Virus record (IMG/VR): IMGVR_UViG_3300014202_000313
Location: 1 to 38,058 of that record
DNA length: 38,058 nucleotides
Origin: a virus
Strand: one strand, 5' to 3'
A program made the position numbers and the translations under genes. Below, piece by piece: positions 2,307 through 38,058 of the stretch (position 1 is the stretch's first letter; the number at the start of each line of letters is the position of its first letter). The notes beneath the pieces were generated by a model that was not told where the DNA came from, made no database searches, and saw only the letters and a program-made list of their open reading frames with translations.

Positions 2307-3930
2307 AGCGAATCAAGAGATAATCGAAGTCCCAGTAGTCATGGCTGGAGGGAACAAATTCGGTCGCTACAGCAAAATCAATGACTCAGAGACCTGGAAC
2401 ATGATAGTGTCGGAGGGCGCTCTTGTTGATTATTCCGGCTACAAGAATCTATTGAACTTGTTGCCGGAATCTCCAGGTCGCGGCACATATTCGAGTGCCC
2501 GTGGAAATTTTATGACTGTTGTTATTGGTGCAAATGTTTATCGTATTAACTATATCGATCAAGATAATCTTGAGGCAGTTCCAGTAGGGATATTGACTAC
2601 TAATGCTGGGGACGTATTCATATCAGAGAACAATAACGCACAGATATGTATAACCGATCAAAGCCATCTTTATGTTTACAAATATGCTGCGCCTAACTCA
2701 GGATCCTTTCGGCGTTCTGGTTTGGATTTCACCCCTTTTCCTATTCTTACGCCAGGCTATATATCATTCCAAAATGGTAGAATGATCATTGCGGATTTAG
2801 AAACTAATCTATGGTATTTATCGGGAATAAATGATGCTGAAATGTGGAACACTTCTAGCGCAGTGAAGAATCATGCTTATGTTGGCTCATTACAAACTAA
2901 ACCTGATACTATGCAAGCAGTTGTACCATTACCGGGGGGCGGTAATAATATAATGGTGTTTGGAAAAACAGTCATTGAACAATGGCAAGATGTGGGGGCA
3001 GCATTGTTTCCATATCAGCGTTCAAGTTCATTGAATATTGATTACGGCTGTTTAAACGCCTCCAGTATTGCTGCTTTAGATAATTATATCGTATGGCTAT
3101 CAGCAAACGAGCAAGGTGGACCAACTGTTATGGTCACAAATGGGGGCCGAGAAGAGCCTATATCTACGGATGGCATTGATTTCAAGTTGGCTAATATCAC
3201 CGATCCTACTAATTGCACAGGATTCTTATTCCGCCAGGACGGTCATTTGATTTATCAATTTACTTTTCCAACTGATAACATTAGTTATATTTACGATTTC
3301 ACCACGAAATTATTTTTCACGGTTTCTGATGAGAATGAAAACTATCATATCGCTAGAAACGTCGTGTTCTTTCACAATGATTATTATTTCGTATCCCTAA
3401 AAGGCGGCAATATATACCGTATGGGAACTCAATATACGACTTACGATTATGGCTCTGATAATGTCCAACAAATTCCTAGAATTCGCATCACAGAGCCATT
3501 CCGATTGCCAACTCAGCGTATGTTTATCATCAAAAGCTTTGGCTTCACAATAGAAAATGGCCAACAAAACTATTATCAAACCTATACCACTGAAAGACAC
3601 GAATCAGATTCGGCTGTAAAAGCTATTTCCACGGAATCTAATATTATTATTTGCACTGAAAACGGAGAAGCCATTGCAACAGAAGGAAGTGGATTTGATG
3701 AAACATTTACTTATGTATTGTCTCCATCAAACGTAGATTTATCTGTTTCTCGTGATGGAGCAGCATCTTTTGGCAATAGTTGGCGACTTAATATGAATCA
3801 AACTGGATTAAGGAAAAGTAGACTTATATGGCAGAGGCTTGGGCAAGCAAATGATATAACGCTTCAGATTCGATTTAATGGCCCTATTAGATTCATTGCC
3901 TTTGATGGCCTGATGGAGGTGTATCAATAA
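2287..3930 (+). CDS. Putative tail hub / packaged-DNA stabilisation protein (P22 gp10-like)
   Basis: 547 aa. Synteny after the adaptor, and the C-terminal pattern LSVSRDGAASFGN...LIWQRLGQANDITLQIRF resembles my recollection of the P22 gp10 C-terminus. Not verified by alignment. Confidence 0.5.
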   Translation: MARPAPRANQEIIEVPVVMAGGNKFGRYSKINDSETWNMIVSEGALVDYSGYKNLLNLLPESPGRGTYSSARGNFMTVVIGANVYRINYIDQDNLEAVPVGILTTNAGDVFISENNNAQICITDQSHLYVYKYAAPNSGSFRRSGLDFTPFPILTPGYISFQNGRMIIADLETNLWYLSGINDAEMWNTSSAVKNHAYVGSLQTKPDTMQAVVPLPGGGNNIMVFGKTVIEQWQDVGAALFPYQRSSSLNIDYGCLNASSIAALDNYIVWLSANEQGGPTVMVTNGGREEPISTDGIDFKLANITDPTNCTGFLFRQDGHLIYQFTFPTDNISYIYDFTTKLFFTVSDENENYHIARNVVFFHNDYYFVSLKGGNIYRMGTQYTTYDYGSDNVQQIPRIRITEPFRLPTQRMFIIKSFGFTIENGQQNYYQTYTTERHESDSAVKAISTESNIIICTENGEAIATEGSGFDETFTYVLSPSNVDLSVSRDGAASFGNSWRLNMNQTGLRKSRLIWQRLGQANDITLQIRFNGPIRFIAFDGLMEVYQ

Positions 3931-20127: not shown

Positions 20128-20628
20128 TTATAAATCTTTAAGCCATTTATCCAATAGATCAAAATCATGATTTATTTGTTCGATCATCTTTATTCTTTTT
20201 TTTGACATTCTGTCCGCAATAAGATTAATTTTTTCATTATAAATTTTCTCTGGGAGCTTATCTTCATTTATATTATCAAGCATATTAGGAGACGGAGAAA
20301 TATTTTCTAGAGATTTCATGCAATGATAGAAATTCTCAATTAGCATAATTCCTTTTTCGCATTTAAATTGTGATTGATACAATTCCGCCATTTCCACATC
20401 TTTAAAACATCCTTCGAATTTTGTGATTAATTGCCAATAAATATTGCGACATACTTTTTGATAAGAATTCCTTAAAGATGTTGTAGAGCATCCCTGTTCG
20501 TGTGAAATCTCCAATAAAGATTTTTTCTTTTTTGCAACCAAGAGCGCTCTTTCTGAATGTTGAATTCTTAACTTACTACTCCAGGTGAAATCAAATTTAT
20601 AGACATTTTCAATTACTTGCATTTGCAT
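20128..20628 (-). CDS. Hypothetical protein with a possible sigma region-4 / LuxR-like HTH segment
   Basis: SERALLVAKKKKSLLEISHEQGCSTTSLRNSYQKVCRNI looks like an HTH. This is a weak call made by eye. Confidence 0.4.
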   Translation of the reverse strand: MQMQVIENVYKFDFTWSSKLRIQHSERALLVAKKKKSLLEISHEQGCSTTSLRNSYQKVCRNIYWQLITKFEGCFKDVEMAELYQSQFKCEKGIMLIENFYHCMKSLENISPSPNMLDNINEDKLPEKIYNEKINLIADRMSKKRIKMIEQINHDFDLLDKWLKDL

Positions 20629-21322
20629 ATTCCTCTTTCGCTTTTAAATAGGCTGCGTGGGCTTCTTCGGGGGTGTCAAATCCACCTAATGTTGATTCCT
20701 CAGTCTTCCATCTCAATCTGGCGTAATATTTATTTCTAGATTTCATAACACCAGGAAATCCATGTTTATTCGTTACATTTATTTTTATTCTTGGGTTTAA
20801 TTCCTTAATGATTTCTTTAATTTCAACTTCTTCAGAAAATCCGTTATCAATCAATTCTAAACATTTATCATATATTTTTTGAGCTTCCTCTTGTGTTTTA
20901 TAACCACCCATAGAAACAGCTTTTCTATTTAAAAAGAATCTCACTTTCCATCTTCCTTGATGAAAATAACAAGAATTTTTCGATCTCAAAGAATTATTGA
21001 ATTCAGACTTACTAATAGAAATCATATTTTCTATTTTTGTATTGGTTATATTTTCATCTTTAAATTTTATAACTTTGGGCTTTAATTTATGATGATAAAG
21101 ATATATTAAATGTGATAAAGCAAAATAATAATTTTTACCATTTACCTTAAGGTTTGTATGTATTACGGGACGTCTATTGTCATAGTAGTTTGCGAAACAT
21201 CCCAGAATAGATCCTGCTTTTTTTGCATTCGATAAATCTTTTAGCGCTATCAATTCCCCATCTTCATACCGATAATGTTCATGCAAATAATCATAGATTT
21301 GTTGTACTTCTTCTTCAGTCAT
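20609..21322 (-). CDS. AP2-domain protein derived from an HNH-AP2 homing endonuclease; the HNH core looks degenerate
   Basis: It has two AP2-like modules (YFHQGRWKVRFF...GGYKTQEEAQKIYD and GVMKSRNKYYARLRW...LGGFDTPEEAHAAYLKA). The HNH_3-like stretch reads IKFKDENITNTKIENM where I expect (D/N)H..GN...N..(E/S)NL. Confidence 0.6.
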   Translation of the reverse strand: MTEEEVQQIYDYLHEHYRYEDGELIALKDLSNAKKAGSILGCFANYYDNRRPVIHTNLKVNGKNYYFALSHLIYLYHHKLKPKVIKFKDENITNTKIENMISISKSEFNNSLRSKNSCYFHQGRWKVRFFLNRKAVSMGGYKTQEEAQKIYDKCLELIDNGFSEEVEIKEIIKELNPRIKINVTNKHGFPGVMKSRNKYYARLRWKTEESTLGGFDTPEEAHAAYLKAKEEYANASN

Positions 21323-23083: not shown

Positions 23084-23620
23084 TTAAATGTTTTTCCAAA
23101 TTAATCTTAATTTTATATAACGTATATTTTGAGTCGTTACGCCAAATCTATTTGCTATATTTTTTATGCTATACCCCATATCTAGCTGTTTTCTTATTTC
23201 GATAACATCTTTAGCCTTTAATTTGGATAAATTATTTTCTTCGCCGTATCGGGCTGGGATTAAGTAATTTCTTTTTTTCCTTTTGCAATCATTCATATTT
23301 TCTTTATGTGTTCCAAGCCTAAGATGATCTGGCGCTACACAAGATGGATTATCACACAAATGCATCACTTCTAAGCCCTTTGGAATTTCTCCTACATGTC
23401 TTTCATAGGAAAATCTATGGGCTCTTTTTTGTCCTGATCTATCATAGAATATGCCATATCCATAATGCCCTTTACCGCCTATATATTTCATGCACCCATT
23501 TTCATCTGGTAATAAAACATTCGAATAGAATATATTCATAATCGTATTTATGATTCCCGGATGATATCTAACATAGTTTGGCGAACTTTTAATTCTTTTA
23601 GTCTCCACAATCCACCTCAT
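23084..23620 (-). CDS. HNH homing endonuclease (HNH_3-type) with a C-terminal HTH
   Basis: GYGIFYDRSGQKRAHRFSYERHVGEIPKGLEVMHLCDNPSCVAPDHLRLGTHKENMND. The C-terminus IKNIANRFGVTTQNIRYI looks like an HTH. It is inserted between the ATPase and the SSB-like gene. Confidence 0.85.
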   Translation of the reverse strand: MRWIVETKRIKSSPNYVRYHPGIINTIMNIFYSNVLLPDENGCMKYIGGKGHYGYGIFYDRSGQKRAHRFSYERHVGEIPKGLEVMHLCDNPSCVAPDHLRLGTHKENMNDCKRKKRNYLIPARYGEENNLSKLKAKDVIEIRKQLDMGYSIKNIANRFGVTTQNIRYIKLRLIWKNI

Positions 23621-26060: not shown

Positions 26061-26468
26061 ATGTCCAGAAGAATACCACATAAAACTTATAATTGTGCTC
26101 CTTTATTCACGAAAATAGATATCAAAAAAGCAACAGCTAAAAGGATTCATCATCTTCAGTCTAGTTTTGAAAGATTCACAGAGAGCATGCTATCTAAATC
26201 CCCCGACAATCCCGAGAGACAGCAAGCAATTTATCGAATGCAAGAAGCGTGTGTATGGTTTTGTCGCTCTATAGCAGCTAAAGATTTTAAGCTAGACATG
26301 ATCGATGAAGAAAAAATAGAAATAAGAGAACCAACGCCTCAGGAAATCCAAGAAAAGGAAGAAGACAGATTGGCAAGCTTGCTAGCAAACTCAATGGACT
26401 CCAAAGAAAATACTACAAAAATTTTTGTAAAAAAAAGTAAATTTACATTGAACAAGAAGAATAAATGA
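26061..26468 (+). CDS. Hypothetical early protein (135 aa)
   Basis: AGAGG RBS; followed by a hairpin terminator. Confidence 0.6.
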   Translation: MSRRIPHKTYNCAPLFTKIDIKKATAKRIHHLQSSFERFTESMLSKSPDNPERQQAIYRMQEACVWFCRSIAAKDFKLDMIDEEKIEIREPTPQEIQEKEEDRLASLLANSMDSKENTTKIFVKKSKFTLNKKNK

Positions 26469-26487: not shown

Positions 26488-26505
26488 ACGCCTCAAAAGA
26501 GGCGT
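26488..26505 (+). terminator. Hairpin acgcctc-aaaa-gaggcgt followed by attta
   Basis: A 7-bp stem with a 4-nt loop, read directly. The T-tract is weak. Confidence 0.5.
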
Positions 26506-26578: not shown

Positions 26579-27529
26579 ATGTCAAGGAAAAAGGACAAAA
26601 AAATGAGTGTAGAAGCAACAATTTGGGCATGGTCATTAACAAAACAACAAGTATCTTCTCTAGAAAAATTGATCTTACTTTCATTAGCTGATAGAGCTAA
26701 TGAAAAAATGGAATGCTTCCCTTCCGCCGCAAGACTCGAAAAAGACTGCAATACCAACATAAAAACAATTTACAAATCCCTTGAAAACCTATGCAAAAAA
26801 AACATCATCCAAAAAACGGGACAAATGAAAGGAAGAACCAAAAGCGTTCCTGTTTACAGATTATTAAATATACGGGTCAGAGAAGATTTAAGCACACCCA
26901 AAAATGGGTTATCTAAAAATAAAGCACACCCAAAAATGGGTACGCTAAGCTTACCCAAAAACGGGTTACAGAACCTATCATTAGAACCTAACAAAACTAC
27001 TACTACAGAACATGATTCTGAATGCCCTGAAAAAGACATGCCAAAATCCGTAGTAGTAGTAAATAATTATTCATCTTCCCCTTCAGATACTCAGGATGAG
27101 GCGGATAAATTTTTAGTGGCTTCTTCTCAAGCTGTTACTAAGAAATTATCTGAGGCTTTTAGGCTCAATCCTGTTGAAACAAAAAATATAAAATCCGAAT
27201 ATGATTTTCTTCGTGCTTGCCAATACTCAATTGACCACAGAAATGACGGCAATATCCGTGAACTAAGAACGGCTGAAGAAAGAGTTAGAGGAATTATTAA
27301 GCTTGTTAATTCCGGGATGTTTGATGAACCAAAGGGTTGGTCAAAAGAAAGTATATGCCATAAAAAAGAAATTGAGGAACGCGCACGGAAGCAAGCAGAA
27401 ATTTCTCTGAAGAAATGGCAGGAAGAAGAAGCGCAACGAATTAAGATTTTAAAAAATAATCCGATTAAGCAAAACCCTCTGAGTAATCTTCTGCAGGGAA
27501 TTATGGGGAAATCCATAAAGCCATCATGA
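26579..27529 (+). CDS. Replication initiator-like protein (HTH_36 N-terminus) containing the putative origin
   Basis: VSSLEKLILLSLADRANEKMECFPSAARLEKDCNTNIKTIYKSLENLCKKNII is HTH_36-like. The alternative start is the ATG at 26603 behind AAGGAAAAAGGA. It carries intragenic iterons and an inverted repeat. Confidence 0.7.
   Translation: MSRKKDKKMSVEATIWAWSLTKQQVSSLEKLILLSLADRANEKMECFPSAARLEKDCNTNIKTIYKSLENLCKKNIIQKTGQMKGRTKSVPVYRLLNIRVREDLSTPKNGLSKNKAHPKMGTLSLPKNGLQNLSLEPNKTTTTEHDSECPEKDMPKSVVVVNNYSSSPSDTQDEADKFLVASSQAVTKKLSEAFRLNPVETKNIKSEYDFLRACQYSIDHRNDGNIRELRTAEERVRGIIKLVNSGMFDEPKGWSKESICHKKEIEERARKQAEISLKKWQEEEAQRIKILKNNPIKQNPLSNLLQGIMGKSIKPS
26891..26966. repeat. Three iterons with core ACCCAAAAA(T/C)GGGT (26896-26909, 26928-26941, 26953-26966). 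The first two are identical over 19 nt.
   Basis: agcacacccaaaaatgggt occurs at 26891 and 26923, and ttacccaaaaacgggtta occurs at 26951. Confidence 0.7.
26996..27060. repeat. 11-bp inverted repeat actactactac / gtagtagtagt separated by 43 bp, next to the iterons and followed by an AT-rich stretch
   Basis: Read directly: 26996-27006 and 27050-27060. Confidence 0.6.
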
Positions 27530-27765
27530 AATCGAACTCCTTCCAAGAATTCGCAAAACATAAAGGCATCCACTTGCTAAAAGATGATATTGAATTCATC
27601 AAGCAATGTTTGAATAAAATCCCGTATAACGCACGCAGAAGCATTTTGGAGCGATATTCGTTTGAGTGGTTGAAAGGTATAGGGTCAAGTGATATCGTCT
27701 ATCAGCGTCAAAATTTAGGGCGTCGTAGGGCTAATAACTTCTTAAGGGAGAAAGTGAAATGCTAG
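27526..27765 (+). CDS. Hypothetical protein (79 aa) downstream of the initiator
   Basis: The start overlaps the initiator stop (ATGA). No motif was recognised. Confidence 0.6.
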   Translation: MKSNSFQEFAKHKGIHLLKDDIEFIKQCLNKIPYNARRSILERYSFEWLKGIGSSDIVYQRQNLGRRRANNFLREKVKC

Positions 27766-27962
27766 GAGTGGTAAAGTTTTTTGATAATAGACGCGGGTTT
27801 GGGTTTATAACTGCGGATGGACAAGATTACTTTGTACACTATTCAGAAATAAAAGGACCTGGATTCAAAACATTAGGAGAAGCGGTAAAAGTTGATTTTA
27901 AGGCCATAAGTGGCCCTAAAGGATTTCAAGCCACCGAGGTATCAGTTGTTAGAGATAATTGA
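27759..27962 (+). CDS. Cold-shock domain protein (CspA family)
   Basis: GVVKFFDNRRGFGFITADGQDYFVHYSEI carries the RNP1/RNP2-like motifs (KGFGFI, VFVH). Confidence 0.85.
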   Translation: MLGVVKFFDNRRGFGFITADGQDYFVHYSEIKGPGFKTLGEAVKVDFKAISGPKGFQATEVSVVRDN

Positions 27963-37317: not shown

Positions 37318-38008
37318 GTCGAGTTTGATTTGTGGTTGCGGTAAAGAAAAAATTTCTACTCAGAAAAAGATTTGTGAGGATTGTCGGAAAGAAAAGAAGA
37401 AAGAAAAAAGCCGACTTGATCAACAAAAATTTAGAGAGAAGCATGGATCTAAAGTCAAAAGAGGGATTTATTGTAGTCGTTGTAAAGGCATAAAAGAACA
37501 TCAGGAAAGAGGTTATTGCTTGGCTTGTGAACGAGAAAGGTATCTGGAAAAGTCAAAACCAGATTGCGCTACTTGTGGCAAACCTAAAGAAAATGTCCGA
37601 GATGCTTATTGTCACAACTGCAAGAATGAACGAAATAGACTGAAGAGCATTGCCGAAGGGAGAAGATACAAAAACCCTGATGGAAGGAAAAAGACTTGCT
37701 CTAACTGTGGAAGGCAAAAGGAGGAGGCTTTTATAAATGAAAGCTACTGCGCTGGATGTAAATATCTTAAAAGGAAAGTGCATAGACCTCTAAAAAATGA
37801 TGAACAGAAATTTAAAGAAGCCGTACGCAAATTAACTTGGAAAAAAATTAATGAAGGTGTTTTAGTAAGGTTGCCTTGTGAGGTGTGCAAGACGACAGAA
37901 AATGTAGAAGCTCACCATGATGACTATTACCAGCCATTGGAAGTAAGATGGTTATGTCGTAAGCATCACCAAGAGCATCACAAAAACAACGCTAACTTAG
38001 AGGACTAA
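37316..38008 (+). CDS. HNH endonuclease with four N-terminal CxxC...CxxC zinc ribbons
   Basis: The C-terminus CEVCKTTENVEAHHDDYYQPLEVRWLCRKHHQEHH is an HNH motif. There are four repeats of the C-x2-C-x(10-13)-C-x2-C type. Confidence 0.85.
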   Translation: MSSLICGCGKEKISTQKKICEDCRKEKKKEKSRLDQQKFREKHGSKVKRGIYCSRCKGIKEHQERGYCLACERERYLEKSKPDCATCGKPKENVRDAYCHNCKNERNRLKSIAEGRRYKNPDGRKKTCSNCGRQKEEAFINESYCAGCKYLKRKVHRPLKNDEQKFKEAVRKLTWKKINEGVLVRLPCEVCKTTENVEAHHDDYYQPLEVRWLCRKHHQEHHKNNANLED

Positions 38009-38058
38009 AAACATGGCAACATACAGAAAATTCCCATACGGTAGTTTCCTTCCTTACT
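37968..38058. repeat. Second copy of the 91-bp terminal repeat (identical to 1-91)
   Basis: Identical sequence, read directly. Confidence 0.95.

Follow-up and report, generated by a model that had tools for sequence, protein, structure and literature searches.

In phage lambda, the replication origin (ori) lies within the initiator gene O. Within O, its four annotated iterons fall at codon positions 1, 3, 3, and 2 and are read as IPQNEG, SPKTRD, SLKLGD, and YPSKQGD, respectively, and the ori-minus mutations are short deletions that keep the frame and do not impair O function. An imperfect palindrome, described as part of ori, lies to the right of the AT-rich tract of lambda. Plasmid iterons serve both replication and control roles. 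The Stx phages 933W and P27 carry six iterons, against four in lambda (PMC7466680), the same study having used synonymous recoding of iterons to tell the role of the DNA from that of the protein, and in the plasmid scheme, short 13-mer-like repeats are found beside the iterons where the DNA opens (PMC5043065). O-like initiators of phages GF-2 and phiV10 have been annotated; no experimental study of them was found. The DNA analyzed here is IMG/VR record IMGVR_UViG_3300014202_000313 (38,058 bp, hereafter the window), which derives from an uncultured phage and for which an earlier note had proposed an origin inside the initiator gene. The segment at about 26890-27061, embedded in the linker-coding part of this gene, is most probably the core of the replication origin. 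This reading is based on an initiator gene of the HTH_36 type, on a DNA word that is exclusive to the linker, independent of the reading frame, and tied to the N-terminal domain, and on the bridging initiator of phage GF-2. A literature search in one collection retrieved the lambda and Stx work and no description of iterons in HTH_36 phage initiators.

The initiator gene, the domains of its product, and the iterons are as follows (window coordinates, with the strand for coding features):

26579-27529, plus strand: replication initiator gene, 316 amino acids (aa), with Pfam HTH_36 and PHROG matches
26603-26878, plus strand: N-terminal winged-helix DNA-binding domain, about residues 9-100, predicted local distance difference test (pLDDT) 94-98, topology H-H-H-H-E-E (AlphaFold2)
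26879-27121, plus strand: interdomain linker, residues about 101-181, predicted to be disordered, pLDDT 37-53, without secondary structure (AlphaFold2)
26890-26909: iteron 1, AAGCACACCCAAAAATGGGT, read as S-T-P-K-N-G, with the palindromic core ACCCA-AAAA-TGGGT
26922-26941: iteron 2, the second exact copy of the 20-mer AAGCACACCCAAAAATGGGT, in a shifted frame, A-H-P-K-M-G
26951-26968: iteron 3, TTACCCAAAAACGGGTTA, in the first frame again, L-P-K-N-G
27128-27526, plus strand: C-terminal helical domain, residues 184-308, five helices, pLDDT about 80 (AlphaFold2)

The initiator matched HTH_36 (PF13730) with an E-value of 6e-12 and 45.6 bits against a Pfam gathering cut-off of 25, and its residues 9-190 matched the PHROG replication initiation and O-like families (best E-value of 1e-26). 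The true start codon is likely that at 26603, in the same frame as 26579, because the homologues open with MSVEATIWAW and AGGA is located 7 nt upstream. In the AlphaFold2 model, built from a 39-sequence alignment, the linker separates two folded domains, and the segment encoding it holds all the DNA elements described below, namely the iterons, the 11-mers, the inverted repeat, and the AT-rich run. Foldseek gave only weak matches for the N-terminal domain (E-values of at least 0.045), all of which were winged-helix DNA binders, including the plasmid RepA N-terminal domains 4pql, 4pt7, and 5kbj. The C-terminal domain had no match in Pfam, PDB, or Foldseek, and PDB sequence searches with profiles of both domains were also negative. 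It is presumed to be a replisome-recruitment domain of an uncharacterised family and is 47-54% identical to the C-terminal domains of initiators with unrelated N-terminal domains. An 11-nt perfect palindrome, TTTCATTAGCT / AGCTAATGAAA, at 26679-26705 in the LSLADRANEK codons was set aside as probably due to chance; close relatives use other synonymous codons there.

The earlier note had described one word read in two frames, and this was confirmed: the copy at 26891 begins at codon position 1 (S-T-P-K-N-G), and the copy at 26923 begins at codon position 3 (K-A-H-P-K-M-G). The third copy was likewise found where it had been placed, with 25 bp between the starts of the second and third cores, and the ACCCA and TGGGT halves of the core are exact reverse complements. 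A repeat search of the window recovered the iterons as one family of three 23-nt copies with 100, 87, and 87% identity. The 14-mer ACCCAAAAAYGGGT starts at 26896, 26928, and 26953 and has exact matches nowhere else in the 38 kb; with up to two mismatches, six matches were found against 0.57 expected, and none of 100 shuffles reached six. The iteron spacings of 32 and 25 bp add up to 57 bp, or 19 codons, and iteron 3 is therefore back in the frame of iteron 1. The palindrome of iteron 2 reaches out to AGCACACCCA/TGGGTACGCT. Iteron 2 with its flanks (26923-26946) forms a palindrome with a 10-bp stem that precedes a minus-strand T-run, and was scored as terminator-like.

For comparison, 160 related loci (cited by L numbers) were collected from IMG/VR and GTDB genomes, yielding 89 non-redundant genes; a scan of IMG/VR with the single protein found no relatives, and an alignment query was needed. 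The homologues in phages GF-2 (Edwardsiella), AP22 (Acinetobacter), phiV10 (E. coli), and H20 (Vibrio), with N-terminal domains about 40% identical to that of the window, carry a repeat array at the same place, encoding NDPKIGIL, NDPKNGML, and NRPENGTL and ending in G-x-QN(Q/L)SLEP. Iteron 1 is conserved in L005, L006, L007, and L012. Among close relatives, the core of iteron 3 is conserved more strongly than the other two, 13 of its 14 columns being invariant. The off-frame class represented by iteron 2 is kept as AHPKTG in relatives, which have two such copies; a 24-bp iteron copy of L005-L007 is missing from the phage of the window. A candidate fourth iteron, ATCCAAAAAACGGGA at 26806-26822, was rejected because it falls within the part of the gene that encodes the winged helix and because L005, L006, and L007 do not keep its nucleotides.

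The word CCC[AG]AA[AT][ACT][CT]GG was present in 225 copies on the coding strand of the initiator open reading frames (ORFs) of the 160 loci, all at codons 88-178, and in only 21 copies in the other 671 kb of these loci, both strands counted. All three frames are used (161, 42, and 22 copies), and 28 of the 52 non-redundant word-bearing genes (of 89) use two or three of them. Conservation of the 14-mer irrespective of frame, which the earlier note had set as a test, is thus borne out by 225 linker copies in three frames. The loci L005 and L006 have four copies each, in frames A, B, B, and A, encoding STPKNG, AHPKTG, AHPKTG, and STPKNG, while L010 and L011 contain 9-11 copies each, translated as TQKRD, TPKNG/TPENG, and HPKTG within one protein. 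The iteron variants in the family include CCCAAAAAC, CCCGAAAAC, CCCAAATTT, and ACCAAAAAC. Of the 37 genes in which the exact word is missing, 34 contain repeated 10-mers of their own that are restricted to the linker, and in 16 of these 34 the repeats occupy more than one frame.

Codon usage in the linker was counted over the non-redundant genes. A peptide PKNG kept with changing nucleotides would have spoken for selection on the protein, and the reverse was found. In the linker motif P-[KE]-N-G, Pro is encoded by CCC in 96 of 96 cases, against a background of 61/518 (12%), Lys by AAA in 66/66 (background 66%), Glu by GAA in 30/30 (background 62%), and Asn by AAC in 88/96, and Gly is never encoded by GGC. 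In L007, the CCCGAAAAC change (CACCCGAAAACGGGT) occurs in all four copies (4/4), replacing K by E in frame A and being silent (CCA to CCG) in frame B. The third-codon column identity among close relatives was 0.74 in the winged-helix domain and 0.84, 0.96, and 1.00 in the iteron cores. Since the word is independent of the frame, its codons are fixed, and the L007 change is concerted, these comparisons show that the nucleotide word, not the encoded peptide, is preserved by selection. The location of the array in an unstructured linker is as expected with a weakly constrained peptide.

The distribution of the repeats among initiators of different domain composition shows which part of the protein they accompany. 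Initiators with the same C-terminal domain and dissimilar N-terminal regions (L008, L009, L172, L173, L175, and L187) have different repeats at the same position, for example AGTCCCTSAGGGACT in L008. Those with the same N-terminal domain and another C-terminal domain (L007 and GF-2) have kept the CCC-A-tract-GGG word. The repeats switch with the N-terminal domain and persist across C-terminal swaps, and therefore they belong with the N-terminal DNA-binding domain. Such joint inheritance is what one would expect if the repeats are the cognate sites of the initiator, and it speaks against a site for a host factor. The L008 (3340-3440) and L172 (2330-2390) loci have palindromic iterons of their own, CAGTCCCTGAGGGACTG and CCAGTCCCTGTGGGACCG, with a different N-terminal domain; these iterons are even closer to the TCCCTC...GAGGGA design of lambda.

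The initiator of GF-2 combines this HTH_36 domain and the array with a C-terminal domain that is 62% identical to that of lambda O (E-value of 2e-67). It is followed by a lambda-P homologue, and P-type loaders are also encoded in phiV10 and L007. From this fusion and the presence of lambda-P, the module sits at the place of the lambda O N-terminal domain and ori. The parallel with lambda ori inside gene O, drawn in the earlier note, is therefore apt at the level of architecture, with GF-2 as the bridge.

Downstream of the array, the linker-coding segment contains the following elements:

26970-26993: two tandem 11-mers, AGAACCTATCA (26970) and AGAACCTAACA (26983), 13 bp apart, encoding QNLSLEPN
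26996-27009: left arm of the inverted repeat, core ACTACTACTACA, encoding T-T-T-T
about 27047-27061: right arm of the inverted repeat, core GTAGTAGTAGTA, encoding V-V-V-V
27058-27077: short AT-rich run TAAATAATTATTCATCTT, a weak feature

The conserved 11-mer pair is an addition of this analysis and was recovered as a separate repeat family in the repeat search of the window. Two or three copies of CAGAAYCWRTCA (AGAACCTAWCA), with a period of 12-13 bp, follow the last iteron in nearly all lineages, including L001-L004, and the copies co-vary within a genome. The codons used in CAGAAYCWRTCA are nearly fixed, with Ser TCA in 32/32 (background 23%), Gln CAG in 36/36 (40%), and Leu CTA in 24/27 (11%). 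The position and periodicity of the 11-mers suggest candidate roles as unwinding-element repeats or as a second binding site. The conserved 'PKNG' and 'QNLSLEP' peptide motifs of these proteins are accounted for as by-products of DNA sites.

The inverted repeat reported in the earlier note as 11 bp (26996-27006/27050-27060) is real, and its length was revised to 14 nt with 93% complementarity (26996-27009/27047-27060). The right arm is separated by 60 bp from the downstream region (from 27122) that can be aligned to the C-terminal domain of the relatives. Perfect 11-nt inverted repeats are not rare in the window (six distinct against about one expected, mostly terminator-like), and the significance of this one therefore comes from its conservation in relatives, not from the window statistics. 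It precedes the C-terminal domain in 9/9 lineages of that domain family, which have about seven mutually dissimilar N-terminal regions, and it is absent in L007, which has another C-terminal domain. Spacer lengths of 6, 12, 15, 18, or 42 nt occur, and the spacer sequences are unrelated. Eight of the nine lineages have an unchanged left arm ACTACTACTACA, whereas only ACTACA is present in L173. Across the nine lineages, the arm codons were ACT 9/9, ACA 9/9, GTA 9/9, GTA 5/9, and GTA 9/9, those of the left arm being scored in the two columns that encode Thr in every lineage; invariant residues of the neighbouring folded domain are encoded in these lineages by 2-4 different codons. The single-strand DNA fold of the inverted repeat in the window has an energy of -8.3 kcal/mol (z = -4.6); the hairpin z was -5.3 in L175 and marginal (-0.8 to -1.4) in other lineages. 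No compensatory changes were found across the lineages, and the GTT/GTC variants of the right arm bring mismatches and thus an uneven stability of the hairpin; pairing of the arms is therefore only putative.

One further locus, L184 (IMGVR_UViG_3300030397_000595, 2975-3165), has the same arms in an unannotated winged-helix-like ORF adjoining an integrase-like gene. Its layout is symmetric: a DnaA box TGTGGATAA, a palindromic repeat TCGGAAACTTTCCGA, the (ACT)n...(GTA)n arms, the repeat again, and two DnaA boxes. The arms lie between two GGTCGGAAACTTTCCGACAAA copies, with the perfect DnaA boxes TGTGGATAA outside; they enclose an AT-rich spacer, and the right arm here encodes Ser. As a single example, L184 supports the arms as an origin-core element. 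We tentatively regard ACTACTACTACA...GTAGTAGTAGTA as a possible portable origin-core element, such as a hairpin, a strand-opening site, or a loading or priming site, paired functionally with the C-terminal domain, although the odds are on the doubtful side. If so, these origins would be bipartite, comprising a specificity module (DNA-binding domain and iterons) and a loading module (inverted repeat and C-terminal domain) that recombine independently. Alternatively, the arms may be no more than a junction of microhomology at which modules are exchanged, or a hairpin in the mRNA. The codon-invariant inverted repeat travelling with the C-terminal domain is potentially a new piece.

By analogy with lambda, we propose the following mechanism for this origin, in which binding by the initiator, firing of the origin, and the parts played by the 11-mers and the inverted repeat are inferred. 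The N-terminal winged-helix domain would bind each of the three palindromic iterons, each with a central A-tract, probably as a dimer. The resulting multi-protein complex would bend and stress the DNA, and the neighbouring DNA, comprising the pair of AGAACCTAWCA repeats and the stretch enclosed by ACTACTACTACA...GTAGTAGTAGTA, would then open. The C-terminal domain might finally recruit the host replicative helicase, this last step being a guess.

Several observations weigh against assigning the origin to this segment. No clear AT-rich unwinding element was found beside the array in a 40-mer GC scan, and the AT-rich stretch mentioned in the earlier note proved weak: the 40-mers at 27050-27060 have 30-33% GC against 39% for the window, which places them at the 18th-27th percentile, while the AT-rich tract of lambda has 23% GC against 48% for gene O. 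DnaA boxes (TTATNCACA, up to one mismatch) numbered 51 in the window against 53 expected, none of them clustered at the array. The GC skew, considered as an origin signal, was discarded as uninformative; it follows the direction of transcription and mirrors the leftward operon at 18-24 kb. The similarity of the initiator to lambda O in BLASTP was not significant (E-value of 0.087). The next ORF after the initiator encodes 79 aa and is no P-type loader according to Pfam and PHROG, and neither a DnaB-type helicase nor a lambda-P-type loader was found among the phage genes. Gene conversion could partly explain the identity of the copies within one genome.

One of these points also favours the best-surviving alternative, that the words are initiator-binding sites for autoregulation or for replication control by titration or handcuffing, with the origin elsewhere. 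Besides the lack of a marked AT-rich tract beside the array, this alternative draws on the resemblance of iteron 2 on the minus strand to an intrinsic terminator and on the double role of plasmid iterons. It is opposed by the absence of a second cluster of the word in the 38-kb genome, by an architecture that matches the lambda origin element for element, and by GF-2, which has the module where the lambda ori module sits. The promoter-like and terminator-like matches in the array region were, moreover, at chance level in the promoter/terminator scan. We consider that this alternative has a small but real chance of being correct.

It is improbable that the words are sites for another protein, either a host factor or a second phage protein. 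The core of CCC, A-tract, and GGG is indeed similar across phages with different hosts; however, the repeats track the N-terminal DNA-binding domain and are unaffected by a change of the C-terminal domain alone, which a host-factor site would not do. Still less probable is a functional peptide repeat, a linker motif of the PKNG type whose nucleotide identity would stem from gene conversion or a recent duplication. Many relatives do contain a PxxG repeat and, at its close, a QN(L/Q)SLEP motif, but one DNA word is translated as PKNG, HPKTG/HPKMG, and TQKRD, the codons are fixed against the background in 89 non-redundant genes of different genera, and the segment is predicted to be disordered. 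The frame and codon counts effectively refute the peptide-repeat explanation. Action of the palindromes in RNA, as mRNA hairpins for translational pausing, attenuation, or programmed frameshifting, is hardly credible: the iteron cores and the TTTT/VVVV arms are able to form hairpins, but Rfam gave no match, CCCAAAAAT does not fit the canonical X XXY YYZ pattern of slippery sites, and the single long ORF is intact in every relative. A programmed frameshift in particular was rejected on the last two grounds, the lack of a canonical slippery heptamer and the one intact ORF in all relatives.

The contig carries a 91-bp exact terminal direct repeat (1-91 and 37968-38058) and closes into a circle; it is probably a complete genome of about 37.97 kb. 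The phage genes include those for a terminase, a portal, an endolysin, an SF2 helicase, an SSB, and a Sak4-like annealing protein. No cultured phage has a terminase more than 31% identical to this one, and no DNA similarity to known phages was detected at blastn sensitivity. Two HNH endonuclease genes, at 20609-21322 (minus strand) and 23084-23620 (minus strand), are interspersed with those of the SF2 helicase, the SSB, and the Sak4-like annealing protein within the leftward early operon and may encode homing endonucleases.

Just upstream of the initiator gene, an ORF of 135 aa at 26061-26468 (plus strand) matched the Acb2/Tad1 hairpin domain PF24729 with an E-value of 7.7e-5; the match is sub-threshold, with 23.2 bits against a cut-off of 27. 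From this match, its product could be an anti-defence nucleotide sponge. Between this ORF and the initiator gene, a GC-rich hairpin, ACGCCTC-TTTT-GAGGCGT, at 26488-26505 has a minus-strand T-run and resembles a terminator that would act on leftward or bidirectional transcription. Downstream of the initiator, the 27526-27962 region contains a small ORF (PHROG 852; 71-83 aa across the loci compared) and then a gene for a cold-shock-domain protein. The same order was observed in L005, L006, and L007, the last having a different C-terminal domain, as well as in L008, with one extra ORF between.

The present analysis provides a well-supported and testable origin assignment for an uncultured 38-kb phage. 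By extension, a large family of HTH_36 initiators from Acinetobacter, Vibrio, Edwardsiella, E. coli, Pseudoalteromonas, and other prophages would have lambda-style origins in the linker. The origins of this initiator family could then be annotated from the sequence alone, and the family would supply many natural pairs of iterons and DNA-binding domains for specificity studies.

Among the described systems, the iteron plasmids (R6K pi, RK2 TrfA, pPS10 RepA, and staphylococcal RepA) share with this locus a winged-helix initiator and multiple direct-repeat sites. In contrast to the array described here, plasmid iterons are usually outside the rep gene and are not individually palindromic, and the DnaA boxes typical of plasmid origins are not enriched in the window. 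The phages GF-2 and phiV10 are closer, with CCCAAAA(A/T)YGGG at the same position and CAGAAYCAGTCA repeats after it; they differ in their lambda-O-type C-terminal domains and in lacking the (ACT)3ACA/(GTA)4 inverted repeat.

With lambda ori in gene O, the locus shares several palindromic iterons of the CCC, A-tract, GGG design (ATCCCTCAAAACGAGGGA and variants in lambda), located mid-gene, with a DNA-binding domain encoded on the N-terminal side and a recruitment domain on the C-terminal side. As in lambda and the Stx phages, relatives differ in the number of iterons because units have been gained or lost in frame. It differs from lambda in its HTH_36 N-terminal domain, which has no significant similarity to that of O, in the uncharacterised family of its C-terminal domain, in the lack of a strong AT-rich tract and of a P-type loader gene, and in its extra 11-mer pair and (ACT)3ACA/(GTA)4 inverted repeat. 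The spacing of the iterons is irregular in both systems (20-32 bp), so that not all copies share one reading frame. That DNA sites can constrain a coding sequence in several frames has been known from lambda for decades, and as the lambda iterons occupy three frames, a frame-shifted iteron is a property of the archetype, not a novelty. By this analogy, the origin of the phage would work like that of lambda while its proteins stand outside the O and P families.

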